Assembly (NCBI GenBank): GCA_951406725.2
Contig: OX597836.1
Location: 38,626,001 to 38,690,000 of the forward strand
Origin: Octopus vulgaris
Lineage: Eukaryota
Reading direction: 5' to 3'
DNA: 64,000 bases
Below are positions 47,639 through 53,525 of the stretch, piece by piece. The notes under the pieces were generated by a model. The model saw only the letters and a list, made by a program, of their open reading frames with translations. It made no database searches and was not told where the DNA came from. Both the position numbers and the translations under genes were made by a program. Position 1 is the stretch's first letter, and each line of letters begins with the position of its first letter.

Positions 47639-49363
47639 CATCATCATCATTGTTTAACGTCCATTTTCCATGCTAGCATGGGTTGGACGATTTTGACTGA
47701 GGGCTGGTGAACCAGATGGCTACACCAGGCTCCAATCTTGATTTGGCAGAGTTTCTACAGCTGGATGCCCTTCCAAACGCCAACCACTCCAAGAGTGTAG
47801 TGGGTGCTTTTTACATGCCACCGGCACGGGGGCCAGTCAGGCGGTACTGGCAATGATTTCACTCGAATCCTTTTACATATGCCACCAGCACAGGTGCCAG
47901 TAAGGCGACGTTGGTAACGATCACGCTTGAATGGTGCCCTTTTACATGCCACGGCACGGGGGCCAGTCAGGCGGTACTGGCAACGACCTTGCTCGAATCC
48001 TTTTACACATGCCACCAGCACAGGTGACAGTAAGGCGACGTTGGTAACGATCACGCTCAAATGGTGCCCTTTTACATGCCCCGGCACGGGGGCCAGTCTG
48101 GCAGTATGGCAATGACCCTGCTCAAATCCTTTTACACATGCCACCAGCACAGGTGCCAGTAAGGCGACGTTGGTAACGATCACGCTCGAATGGTGCCCTT
48201 TTACATGCCACGGCACGGGGGCCAGTCAGGCGGTACTGGCAATGACCCCGCTTGAATCCTTTTACATATGCCACCAGCACAGGTGCCAGTAAGGCGACGT
48301 TGGTAACGATCACGCTCGAATGGTGCCCTTTTACATGCCACGGCACGGGGGCCAGTCAGGCGGTACTGGCAACGACCTCGCTCGAATCCTTTTACACATG
48401 CCACCAGCACAGGTGACAGTAAGGCGACGTTGGTAACGATCACGCTCGAATGGTGCCCTTTTACATGCCCCGGCACGGGGGCCAGTCTGGCAGTATGGCA
48501 ATGACCCTGCTCAAATCCTTTTACACATGCCACCAGCACAGGTGCCAGTAAGGCGACGTTGGTAACGATCACGCTCGAATGGTGCCCTTTTACATGCCAC
48601 GGCACGGGGGCCAGTCAGGCTGTACTGGCAATGACCCCGCTCGAATCCTTTTACACATACCACCAGCACAGGTGCCAGTAAGGCGACGTTGGTAACGATC
48701 ACGCTCGAATGGTGCCCTTTTACATGCCACGGCACGGGGGCCAGTCAGGCTGTACTGGCAATGACCCCGCTCGAATCCTTTTACACATGCCACCAGCACA
48801 GGTGCCAGTAAGGCGACGTTGGTAACGATCACGCTCGAATGGTGCCCTTTTACATGCCACGGCACGGGGGCCAGTCAGGCTGTACTGGCAATGACCCCGC
48901 TCGAATCCTTTTACACATGCCACCAGCACAGGTGCCAGTAAGGCGACGTTGATAACGATCACGCTCGAATGGTGCCCTTTTACATGCCACGGCACGGGGG
49001 CCAGTCAGGCTGTACTGGCAATGACCCCGCTCGAATCCTTTTACACATGCCACCAGCACAGGTGCCAGTAAGGCGACATTGGTAACGATCACGCTCGAAT
49101 GGTGCCCTTTTACATGCCACGGCACGGGGGGCCAGTCAGGCTGTACTGGCAATGACCCCGCTCGAATCCTTTTACACATGCCACCAGCACAGGTGCCAGT
49201 AAGGCGACGTTGGTAACGATCACGCTCGAATGGTGCCCTTTTACATGCCACGGCACGGGGGCCAGTCAGGCTGTACTGTCAATGACCTCGCTCGAATCCT
49301 TTTACACATGCCACCAGCGCAGGTGCCAGTAAGGCGACGTTGGTAACGATCACGCTCGAATGG
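47639..49363 (-). repeat. Family D element whose internal repeat expanded into ~12 x 130-bp tandem units (47802-49363)
   Basis: Each unit is two diverged ~65-bp subunits; ORF periodicities of 130 and 389 bp confirm the unit and a 3-unit higher-order repeat. Confidence 0.95.
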
Positions 49364-51029
49364 TAGCAAAAGGATTGACTACAGATCTGTTTGGTCGGGG
49401 TTGACCTATGGTTAAAGAGCAACAACAAGACTGAATGGCAAATCGGAAGTCTGAAAGTTTTTAAATGACAGAAGAATGTAAGAGTAAAAATGCATAGAAT
49501 ACCAAAGAAATATCTGAGTAGCAAAAATAAAGAAAAAAAAAGTGGAGAGACTATTAAAGGTTACAAACGACACAACAGCATTGTAGAAGGAGGAAATGAA
49601 GGAAGAGGATGTAAAAGCAGTGCTGAAGAAAGCTGGTCTGAGAATCCAATAATCAATATTTCTAGGATTGAAGCAACAGGTGAAGAAAGCTTTCAATACG
49701 ATTGATTAGCACACAACAATCTGGAAAGAACCAAAAACTATTTCTCTGGCCATCATATGTTCAAAAGGTTTTACTAATATTGGTTTTTGTGACATTATAT
49801 ATTATTATTATTATTATTATTGCTATGCCAGGTTTCAAGAAAGTTGAAGTAAGATGTCATGACATTTATGCCATTCCCCAAAATGTTTTTGGCATGAGCT
49901 CAGTGAAAGATTTCTCAATTCTAGACGTAAAATATTTTCTTCTGCCAAATTTTCTTTTTAACCCCACAGAACAGTCCTGATCCAGTACACTTGTGATCAA
50001 AGAGGTTCTAAAAATGACATTCCAGCCGATAGTATACCTAAGGTTACATTACTCAACATATTCTCTGTTTTTGAGACAACAGGGTGTAATTTACAGATAA
50101 ACATGACTGCTATTTCTAGCAGTACAATCACTCATACAGAGGCTCCCTTGTTGGCTTATATCTTGTTCATTCAAGAAAAGCCACCAGTAGACTTGTTTCT
50201 CACACTTATTTATATATACTATTGCACATCTGTTTTCTGTGCTGGCATGTGTTGGACAGTTTGACAAGCACTGACAAACCAGAGGAGTGTATCATTATTA
50301 TTATCATCATCATCATCTCATACTTGGTGAAATAATTTTTCCTCACAGCTTAATTATCTTTAATTAACCTTCTGATGCTCCATGCTCATTACATGAAATA
50401 TGTTAACACTATCTTAACAGTTAATTAATCCATAGTTTGGGTTTCCAAAGAAACAGGTTTTCATCAGTTTGAGAAGGCTAAAAGTTAGAAAAGGACAGAA
50501 TAAGGTCAAAAATGCTTCTGAATATAATTACAATAACACCTTCACCTATGACCCTACTTTGATGAACCAACAAAGGAATCTACACACAAAGGCGGGGTAC
50601 ACCTTGCTTATAAGCAAATCTTACATTCAAATTTTAACCCACACACCAACAAAATCTCTAATACTCAATAGAGCCAAAACAGAAATCTAAGATAAGTTAC
50701 TTAATAAGATGGAGAACTGGCAGAATTGTAAGCATGCTGGAAAATATGCTTAGTGAAATTTCATCTATCTTTACATCTGTGTTCAAATTCTGCCAAAGTT
50801 GACCTTACCTTTCATCCTTTTGAGGTTAATAAAATAAATACCAGTTGATCCCTGGGGGCAATGTAATCAACTTTCCCTTTCCTCTGAAAGTGATACATTA
50901 TGGGACTGAACCCAGAACCACGTGGTTGCAAAGATGGCATTTTAACCACACAACCATGCTTGCATCTTACATTCTTTGATAAAATGGATGCATTGGACAA
51001 CGTAGTTCTAGATATAGATTGTTGGTTTT

Positions 51030-51380: not shown

Positions 51381-51820
51381 AAAAAAAAAAAGAAATGAAA
51401 TTGTGGTGGTCATAGTTAGAATGCCTAACGATCATAGATTAGTTCAAACAGAGTTGAACTGGAGCTAAACAATACCCAACACCTTGTGGAAGAGAAGCAG
51501 AATAAATGCAAATAGAAATGGAATTCTGCAATTCTAATTACAGTTTCTGTTTGAGAGTTAAATATTTTAGTGAAAGAATCTAACAAAATGTGTAACGAAC
51601 AAATGCTTAATGTGGAAACAGAAAGAGAATTTTATTGGAAGAATTGGAAATTACATTTGAACCAAAAGAGAATGGAATTTTGCATGTGTGCCGATTATAC
51701 GTAAATAATTGATCATAGCTTTTCACAGGTTTTACACAAATGTACCTGTTCTTATAGTGAAAAGTGCCTTTATTTCTTAGAAACATACTCTTCCCTTTCC
51801 TGTAAAAGTGTGAAACAGTG

Positions 51821-52400
51821 CAAATAATATTTAACGTTTTTCCCAGCAGAGGCAAAAACCTTGAAACTATAGTCCGTATGTATCACTTAGGTTTTCGAGG
51901 GAGGATGACCTCCCTTTGCAAATAACACAAGGGCACTGAAATTGTGTCTAAGGCAAGCTGGAGATGTCGATCTCCTGGGGCTAAAAGCGTCAGTAACACC
52001 CCACCCCCAGTGGCTAGCCACATTCAGATGGCTAGTACACTTTACGTTGTTGAGCGGTTACTGTTTACATCTCGTTCGGAGATTTATTAATGCTTTCAGA
52101 CAGTTTTTCTAAATCAGTGACTGTGGTTGCTGGGAAAAACGTTAAATATTATTTGCAAAGGTCTCCTTCATCGAAAACTGGTGTTTACCATGCGTTGACG
52201 AGAGGCAATTACCTTGAAACTATAGTCCGTATGTAGCACTTAGGTTTTCGAGGGAGGATGACCTCCCTTTGCAAATAACACAAGGGCACTGAAATTGTCT
52301 CTAAGGCCAGCTGGAGACGTTGATCTCCTGGGGCTAAAAGCGTCAGTAACACCCCACCCCCAGTGGCTAGCCACATTCAGATGGCTAGTACACTTTACGT
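51821..52400 (+). mobile_element. Retrozyme-like / non-autonomous Penelope-type insertion: 5' inversion plus ~1.55 copies of a 353-nt monomer
   Basis: TSD TGTGAAACAGTG at 51809-51820 and 52401-52412; 51848-52049 repeats at 52201-52402 (period 353); 51819-51848 is the reverse complement of 52128-52157; no credible ORF. Confidence 0.8.
52189..52233 (+). ncRNA. Minimal type-I hammerhead ribozyme (C3U core variant)
   Basis: Stem I CAUGCG/CGUAUG; core UUGACGA; stem II GAGG-CAAUUA-CCUU; GAAAC; palindromic stem III ACUAUAGU; cleavage triplet GUC at 52225-52227. Confidence 0.75.
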
Positions 52401-52620
52401 TGTGAAACAGTGTTATGCTTGAATTCATGGTCTTTCTTTTTTAATTAGCTGAATTATTTCTGCAAAGAAGGGGTTCATTTCTGACAAAAAAGCAAAGCTT
52501 CATGACTGGAATTTGTATAACATAGATGATAGGTGTTAACGTGCTGAGCTTTAGAAAAGTTTTTACATATTTTTACTGTTCCATTCACAGTATTTATAAA
52601 ATGTGTATTACTAATCATTT

Positions 52621-53069
52621 TGTAGTGACGCCATCTTGGAAATCTCCAGCATGCATGCGCAGAGTTGGATTCTTCTGGGAGGTCTGTTGGAAGTTCTCTC
52701 ATGCACGTTCGCAGAAAACTAGCAGCAGCGAAATTCCCTCGTATTGCTCTCTCAAACGCTGGCAGCTGAACAAGACAGTCGTGTTTTATTAGCTCTCTCA
52801 AGCTGCTACCTTGTGGTGTATCTCCGCTATGCTTGAACGGACAGGATTTGGCTCACTCCACTTGACTACTGCAATAAGCTCCTAGGCTGCCGATTCGCCC
52901 AGAAAGAGGAAAATGTATATATTGCAAATCAAGAAATATTTATACCGTTGAAGTTAATCAGAAGTCTTGACACTTTCCTTCAATTAATATTTTAATGTAA
53001 AGGATGCGAGCTGAACCCATTCAGTGCGGGGACCCCTCATCTTGTTACAGTTGGTGACCCCAACGTGAT
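52621..53069 (+). mobile_element. LTR-retrotransposon 5' LTR remnant (Gypsy-like) with a tRNA-Trp primer-binding site
   Basis: TGTAGTG...TGTTACA (52621-53049; 5' boundary less certain), then TGGTGACCCCAACGTGAT at 53052-53069, a 17/18 match to the complement of the metazoan tRNA-Trp 3' end. Confidence 0.7.
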
Positions 53070-53202
53070 GGGTGCAGCTCGCATCCTTTACATTAAAATC
53101 CTTTGCTTGAAAATCCTAGCATCTTGAATTTTGTCACTGAAACATTTACAGGCATAGCCAAATATACCAATCAAAATTGGCAGTCATATAAACATATAAA
53201 GA

Positions 53203-53525
53203 TTTTGTTGTGTCTAGGAAGAGCCATAACGCCAATATAATTAACACACACACTGGTTTATTATTAGTCAACTGGTTAAATACCCAATTGATTTGGTTTT
53301 GTTTGTCAAAGCTCTTTTGTTGCTTCTTACAGTCTTTTCAAGGATAACAGACTAAGTCAATAAGTCATTGAAAAGGTTGCCAGAAACAATGAAAGAACTT
53401 TGACAAGCAAACACAAAACAATCAGATATTTAACCAATTGACTAATAATAAATGAATGGAACTGAACCAGTGTGTATGTGTTAACTATATTGGCATAATG
53501 TTTCTCCCTAGACACAAAAAAATTT
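53203..53525. mobile_element. Old fold-back (long inverted repeat) element
   Basis: Imperfect arms ~53203-53345 and ~53368-53525, e.g. TTATTATTAGTCAACTGGTTAAATA vs TATTTAACCAATTGACTAATAATAA, and TGTGTCTAGG vs CCTAGACACA. Confidence 0.7.

Follow-up and report, generated by a model that had tools for sequence, protein, structure and literature searches.

A young insertion of a dispersed 353-nt family with a predicted hammerhead and Penelope-type ends in the Octopus vulgaris genome

The sequence at 51809-52412 of the window, by which we mean the whole 64,000-nucleotide stretch of Octopus vulgaris contig OX597836.1 that was analysed, is a young, target-duplicated copy of a dispersed non-coding family with fixed ends of the Penelope type. 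A predicted hammerhead with a U3-G8 core is present family-wide in the 353-nt unit, and by its anatomy this family, here called family A, would be a protein-free non-LTR retrozyme. The explanation that accounts best for the data, and that we consider probable as a whole, is a protein-free family of 353-nt hammerhead units that was likely copied in trans by a Penelope-like reverse transcriptase-endonuclease. Mobilisation in trans by an enzyme of this type is, as a claim of its own, very probable. Among the points against the explanation, the U3-G8 pair is not Watson-Crick, the Rfam score of the hammerhead lies under its threshold, stem III is unpaired in the monomer circle, the inverted arm of the window copy misses the usual end, and the unit has no likeness to the ends of the autonomous families examined.

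Table 1. Features of the insert in window coordinates. Unit position 1 corresponds to 51875, at the predicted cut site.
Feature	Position	Strand	Basis
Left target-site duplication, 12 bp	51809..51820	.	Direct repeat and empty site in X15/X16
Short inverted arm, unit positions 283 to 254	51819..51848	-	Self-comparison, family ends
First hammerhead, 3' half (stem II, GAAA, stem III, GUC, 3' strand of stem I), without 5' half	51848..51880	+	
Complete 353-nt unit between two predicted cut sites	51875..52227	+	Folding, end-to-end pairing
'Tail', 47 nt between the fixed family ends (unit positions 174 and 221)	52048..52095	+	End map
Complete predicted type I hammerhead, canonical geometry; predicted cut after 52227	52189..52233	+	Rfam alignment
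Non-consensus core UUGACGA, U3 (52195) opposite G8 (52200)	52195..52201	+	Motif scans
Self-complementary stem III, 8 nt; predicted inter-unit pairing in dimer	52219..52226	+	Folding, family comparison
Second, partial unit (positions 1-176), to the main fixed 3' end of the family	52228..52403	+	End map, haplotypes
Right target-site duplication, 12 bp	52401..52412	.	Direct repeat and empty site in X15/X16

The 12-bp direct repeat that was reported to bracket the insert is identical at 100% in its two copies, and is a true target-site duplication because contigs of the empty site keep one copy. The empty site was recovered in one contig each from X15 and X16, which belong to one study. In these contigs 51808 is joined to 52401, 592 bases are absent, 12 letters fit either side of the joint and the shorter side measures about 248 letters. 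The joint was present in two of the four sequencing runs compared; in run X17, a contig reaches 29 letters into the insert (threshold 31 letters), a mere hint that this run may be the source sample. The flanks of the empty-site contigs differ from those of the window by about 2%, and the insertion is therefore young. The family could in principle be ordinary satellite DNA spread by recombination at the DNA level, and a few copies do lie in larger tandem or segmental duplications (L070-L072). This is refuted by the empty site with its target duplication, and the dispersal over many contigs and the combination of 5' truncation with fixed 3' ends also speak against it, so that we give it practically no credence. 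In the duplicated region at L071:2538-6997, a family copy lies within a LINE-like reverse transcriptase fragment and is then repeated four times in units of about 1385 bp; L070 and L072 contain later duplications of a similar kind.

The head-to-tail repeat of about 200 nt with a period of 353 was recovered as a direct repeat of 203 nt (spacing 353, 97%). The 30-nt inverted piece at the 5' junction is a perfect inversion (51819-51848 against 52128-52157), which starts at unit position 281-283 and has two bases in common with the duplication, the last two of the left copy. The main arm of the window copy stops at the usual fixed end, and the last three bases of its partial second unit lie within the duplication. 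The initial annotation saw no credible open reading frame, in agreement with which no stop-to-stop frame of at least 110 codons was detected over the insert. The anatomy is also without an LTR pair.

The proposal of a dispersed family was borne out by at least 74 matches to the insert in the genome, among the 40 of 3012 candidates that were scored. An exact 33-base pattern of the ribozyme core occurred 283 times in the genome and not once in the reversed control. A second family, B, has a unit of 357 nt that is 73% identical to that of family A, with 102 exact motif matches, and further sister families with units of about 345-358 nt gave 573 exact matches of a U3-A8 motif. Since it has one complete and one half hammerhead, the window copy contains no two consecutive complete motifs; two consecutive units with complete hammerheads, the arrangement termed 'active' in 10.64898/2026.07.22.740005, were found at five loci (L002, L010, L014, L016 and L028). 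The 353-nt unit, its tandem arrangement and its many dispersed copies agree with the suggested structured non-coding unit of retrozyme size, for which 150-450 bp is the range in non-LTR retrozymes. More families of about 345 nt were seen at L154:1364-1708, L014:178-511, L147 and L089:1729-2060; their U3-A8 hammerhead is identical or similar, most of the body differs, and they have inverted arms.

We mapped the ends of 48 distinct family-A and 15 distinct family-B elements; 19 family-A and 10 family-B loci, which were duplicates of the same insertion, were left out of this and the haplotype map. About half of the loci in the end map were chosen by the ribozyme core alone, and therefore carry no bias on their ends. 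Most copies examined consisted of 0.5-3 units in two back-to-back arms. The outer 3' ends of family A fell mostly at unit positions 170-179 (40 of 73) or 215-223 (23 of 73), together 63 of the 73, with 10 outside both classes, and the 23 outer 5' ends were scattered from 1 to 327. One 3' end of each class was combined in 17 of the 25 two-armed elements. For family B, 23 of the 24 3' ends were located at 174-178 or 220-222, and eight of the nine two-armed elements combined one end of each class. Flanks of (TA)n were present in 23/48 family-A and 12/15 family-B elements, with mean flank A+T contents of 0.83 and 0.89, respectively, versus about 0.63 for the window. Clear duplications outside microsatellites were mostly 12-14 bp.

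These fixed ends, near unit position 174 or 221, replace the permuted endpoints that had been expected. Target-primed insertion with a duplication is upheld by the 12 bp and the empty site in the window and by the duplications of the family at large, but the 5' inversion that had been attached to it is not; a second cDNA, primed from the opposite strand of the cut target, is the better reading of the inverted arm. Unlike the usual family arm, the inverted arm of the window copy does not end at 221, and its cDNA would have been primed at an atypical site. A similar short arm (276-248) is found at L014, and two of the 25 two-armed elements are of this sort.

The fixed-end pattern of family A is the footprint of a Penelope 'tail'. 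Penelope-like elements are described as tailed by 30-40 bp at one end, as carrying an inverted copy with a truncated 5' side and as inserting into microsatellites (PMC8557442). For Poseidon from Anolis, both strands of AT-rich targets were cut and extended in vitro, the tail corresponded to the stretch bounded by two internal start sites, and hammerhead mutants were without effect on insertion (PMC11167929). By analogy with that report, the tail borders at 174 and 221 would be start sites of reverse transcription. Family A thus resembles EN+ Penelope-like elements (PMC8557442, PMC11167929) in its one-end tail, inverted 5'-truncated arm, partial tandems, AT-rich or microsatellite targets and two internal start points. 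It differs from them in lacking an open reading frame, in the length of the tail (47 nt versus 30-40), in a hammerhead that is canonical rather than minimal, and in showing no likeness to the autonomous families examined.

Two autonomous Penelope-like families were found in this genome. The first has frames of 776 aa, with about 90 of the 150 scored matches at 98-100% identity, and is young; relatives of its protein contain reverse transcriptase and GIY-YIG domains. The second is 64-65% identical to the first. The autonomous proteins of this genome may be Neptune-like, a label that we do not use as evidence. Among 17 loci of the first family, 11 had two outward arms, all with a tail of about 40 nt at exactly one end (11/11), and the ends of these 11 insertions lie in TA runs. 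The suspected link to Penelope-like elements is supported, in that the fixed-end footprint is common to family A and an intact Penelope-like family. One family copy, at L075, does adjoin an intact reverse transcriptase and GIY-YIG frame, which belongs to the first family; a TA run lies between copy and element, and both have ends of their own.

BLAST searches with both units gave no sequence match to the autonomous families (14 loci, L132-L145, and 12 more), and a covariance model of the 3' domain of the unit, over 21 sources, had no match in L132-L145. Rfam searches of seven autonomous loci yielded microsatellite-driven matches only, among the best 150 of 263. The autonomous loci read are a few among 14249 candidate places. 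With no likeness to the unit, the autonomous family is therefore only a candidate partner. The unit could alternatively be a solitary terminal repeat (pLTR) of some autonomous Penelope-like element not found here, and precedent comes from Xenopus, where likeness to known elements was reported for 24 of the 57 retrozyme families (Penelope-like in 21 of the 22; 10.64898/2026.07.22.740005). The small number of candidate places read and the U3 cores of the autonomous elements fit such an origin, against which stand the head-to-tail 353-nt units with no open reading frame between them and the separation by a TA run at L075. We consider it very unlikely.

In both young autonomous families (L141:2151-2195 and L135:6316-6355) we noticed hammerhead-like motifs whose core is U3-A8 and whose stem III is palindromic, about 45-60 nt upstream of the first 3' end. 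At L139:1861-7719, a young autonomous Penelope-like element of about 5.9 kb includes the 776-aa frame, about 1.3 kb of upstream sequence with a coding look and a 3' region of about 2 kb that is mainly microsatellite-like; all ends read are in TA runs. Nearby, at L139:8739-9329, a small inverted-arm element contains a minimal CUGAUGA hammerhead with a palindromic stem III and is unrelated to family A.

The Rfam model Hammerhead_1 (RF00163) aligned to 52189-52233 over model positions 1-45 with 17.1 bits (gathering threshold 34; E 0.062 on 96 bases), and a search of 3 kb left the window hammerhead unreported at E<=1. The alignment implies a 6-bp stem I, a 4-bp stem II with a 6-nt loop and a 2-bp stem III. 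Minimal hammerheads of the Penelope type have a short stem I, a long stem II and little or no stem III (PMC4209133). The hammerhead had been annotated as minimal type I; its position and type I fit stand, and its geometry is canonical instead. The reported recurrence of its 3' half upstream is present in the sequence.

The initial annotation overlooked the core sequence, which is UUGACGA instead of the consensus CUGANGA. At the base of stem II there is a G10.1-U11.1 pair (52202/52215). U3 was found in all 46 complete motifs from 25 loci, and UUGACGA in 42 of the 46. A C3U change strongly slows minimal hammerheads. An amplified C3-G8 sublineage was considered; among exact matches, C3 occurs in seven family copies genome-wide, and these are scattered on an unrooted tree. 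The sister families and both autonomous Penelope-like families have a U3-A8 core; the widened U3-A8 scan of the autonomous loci gave no matches on reversed sequence, and its pattern excludes the family-A motif by construction. G8 is found in families A and B, with A8 lineages between them on the unrooted tree, which contains 62 of 113 rows and 173 columns and may be mosaic. Two origins of G8 or a module swap would fit this distribution, and A8 is likely ancestral to G8. U3-A8 is known from covariation in Schistosoma elements (PMC4209133) and from other natural hammerheads (PMC3088659); family A shares U3 with these Penelope-associated hammerheads and differs at position 8, a G that forms a wobble. 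No natural U3-G8 family was found in the literature searched, which included PMC7151607 and covered few subscription papers. A-to-I editing was considered as the source of G8, but the rare variants of 134 family-A segments were not enriched in A>G (32, versus 49 T>C; p 0.095), and CpG decay was evident.

Six different stem III sequences are all self-complementary, that of family B by means of two G-U pairs. This suggests that the dimer form is under selection, and makes the dimer-acting stem III that had been proposed likely. The long-range self-complementarity described within the monomer is real (z -4.06 for the linear fold), and folding as a circle gave a z of -4.55 as compared to -2.46 for the opposite strand. 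In the predicted fold, stem I of the hammerhead is continued by a long helix formed between the two unit ends; pairing probabilities in the monomer circle were 0.6-1.0 for stem I, about 0.77 for stem II and 0.0 for stem III. Across 18 units of families A and B, the 33 pairs of the end-to-end helix were 98.3% paired, against 39-49% for slid partners. Six pairs were changed on both sides, a count that does not beat shuffles (201/500), and almost all of the double changes come from one split, A versus B. The self-complementary stem III and the conserved end-to-end helix suggest selection on the RNA of the unit.

We put self-cleavage of the predicted hammerhead at slightly better than an even chance, and the same holds for the formation of a circular RNA by the family. 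Under the same Penelope-type mobilisation, the U3-G8 ribozyme could instead be crippled or dispensable, with uncleaved linear multimers as templates and no circle. The non-Watson-Crick core pair, the G-U base of stem II, the unpaired stem III of the monomer and the insertion without hammerhead activity in PMC11167929 are consistent with this, as are the mixed haplotypes described below, which fit mixed multimers. Yet two families that are 27% apart retain the remaining core positions, stem III is self-complementary in both, and the helix joining the unit ends is conserved. We regard a crippled ribozyme as unlikely, although not to the degree of the other alternatives.

To describe the templates, we compared haplotypes within and between insertions from a multiple alignment, in which one segment of L014 was misaligned. 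Units within an element differed by 2.8% overall and by 0.5% at sites polymorphic in the family (102 comparisons), versus 6.5% and 3.6% between elements (5515 pairs). No difference at shared sites was observed in 56 of the 102 within-element comparisons, and most insertions therefore derive from one haplotype, as predicted for a circle or a uniform multimer; two or more such differences were observed in 21. The window copy has seven differences between its units, of which five (9, 91, 94, 335 and 336) are alleles shared with other insertions, although that at 91 is a CpG and may be recurrent. At each of the 20 marker sites that could be compared, its 3' unit equals an arm of L007, whereas its 5' part agrees with a different subfamily. 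The two units thus represent different family haplotypes, and simple rolling from a single circle therefore does not account for this copy. The two-haplotype arm could be explained by a template switch, by a source multimer of mixed composition or by gene conversion at a later time.

In the model of the initial annotation, a single 353-nt circle is reverse transcribed in rolling fashion from any start point, with a 5' inversion as in LINEs. The 56 uniform comparisons and the arms that cross the cut site are in its favour. It is contradicted by the ends fixed at two positions and, for the window copy, by the joining of two haplotypes known from other insertions, and we hold this model to be highly improbable; other copies may have had a circle as template.

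According to the preferred explanation, a Penelope-like enzyme would cleave AT-rich DNA on both strands, with about 12 bases between the two cuts. The end left by one cut would prime cDNA synthesis within the RNA at unit position ~174, and the other usually at ~221; we infer the 12-base staggered cut priming two cDNAs from PMC8557442 and PMC11167929. Once joined head to head, the two cDNAs would form one direct and one inverted arm, with 47 nt of tail at one end and a duplication of about 12 bp. Since each arm crosses the hammerhead cut site, the template would be either circular or a multimer that had escaped cleavage. Weak activity is predicted for the U3-G8 hammerhead, which may cleave chiefly in dimers held by the self-complementary stem III, and ligation might then turn the released units into circles, as it does in mussel and axolotl. 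In the window copy, the second arm would have begun at its atypical site and the main arm would have joined two family haplotypes, likely through a template switch or because the source multimer was mixed.

Coral, mussel and axolotl have non-LTR retrozymes for which both cleavage and circles were demonstrated, with units of 350-390 nt in mussel and 331/353 nt in axolotl, and Penelope-like elements were named as their likely mobilisers (PMC7229834). Family A resembles them in unit size, non-coding tandem units with one type I hammerhead each (predicted in family A), a short palindromic stem III, a structured unit, duplications longer than 4 bp and co-occurring Penelope-like elements. It differs in its U3-G8 core and in copies that mostly read as 0.5-3 units in two arms with fixed ends rather than as long arrays; cleavage and circles, which are established for the animal retrozymes, are predictions for family A. 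A 2026 preprint tied retrozymes to Penelope-like elements by homology and co-occurrence, and eight of nine predicted Xenopus retrozymes did not cleave (10.64898/2026.07.22.740005). The pLTR-related retrozymes of Xenopus have likewise been proposed as non-autonomous partners of Penelope-like elements, the link being homology and co-occurrence there and insertion anatomy, with homology not found, in family A. A search of papers, as distinct from repeat databases, gave no report of an octopus retrozyme; the supplement of PMC7229834 may list cephalopod motifs.

The return of animal retrozymes to genomes has so far been inferred from co-occurrence and homology. The two-start footprint of family A is also that of a young, intact Penelope-like element of this genome, and the question is therefore open to a bench test with named RNA positions. 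Searches based on CUGANGA or U3-A8 would miss the whole U3-G8 family, which tests the natural tolerance of a wobble at the 3-8 pair of the core. A more speculative scenario, which we doubt, is a natural hammerhead lineage that works with the U3-G8 wobble, midway between U3-A8 (573 motifs) and C3-G8 (seven copies). Such a lineage would be tuned low and cleave only as a dimer, its stable circles would be copied by a Penelope-type dimer from two fixed sites, and switches between RNA molecules would shuffle modules between families. If true, nature would have supplied an intermediate step of a compensatory change within the core of a ribozyme, and retrozyme insertion could be reconstituted with a small, defined RNA.

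Several other repeats were observed in the window. A tandem array at 47809-49364 consists of 12 units of 130 nt (four of 389 nt) with 95-97% matches and is GC-rich for the window. Another high-copy repeat, at 52620-52850, begins abruptly on its left side at 52620, and its flanks vary in three runs. Two short elements at 52989-53099 and 53253-53457 have long terminal inverted arms, with 32 nt at 97% and a hairpin of about 200 nt that gave sub-threshold matches to microRNA models, and may be MITE-like or inverted-arm retro-copies.
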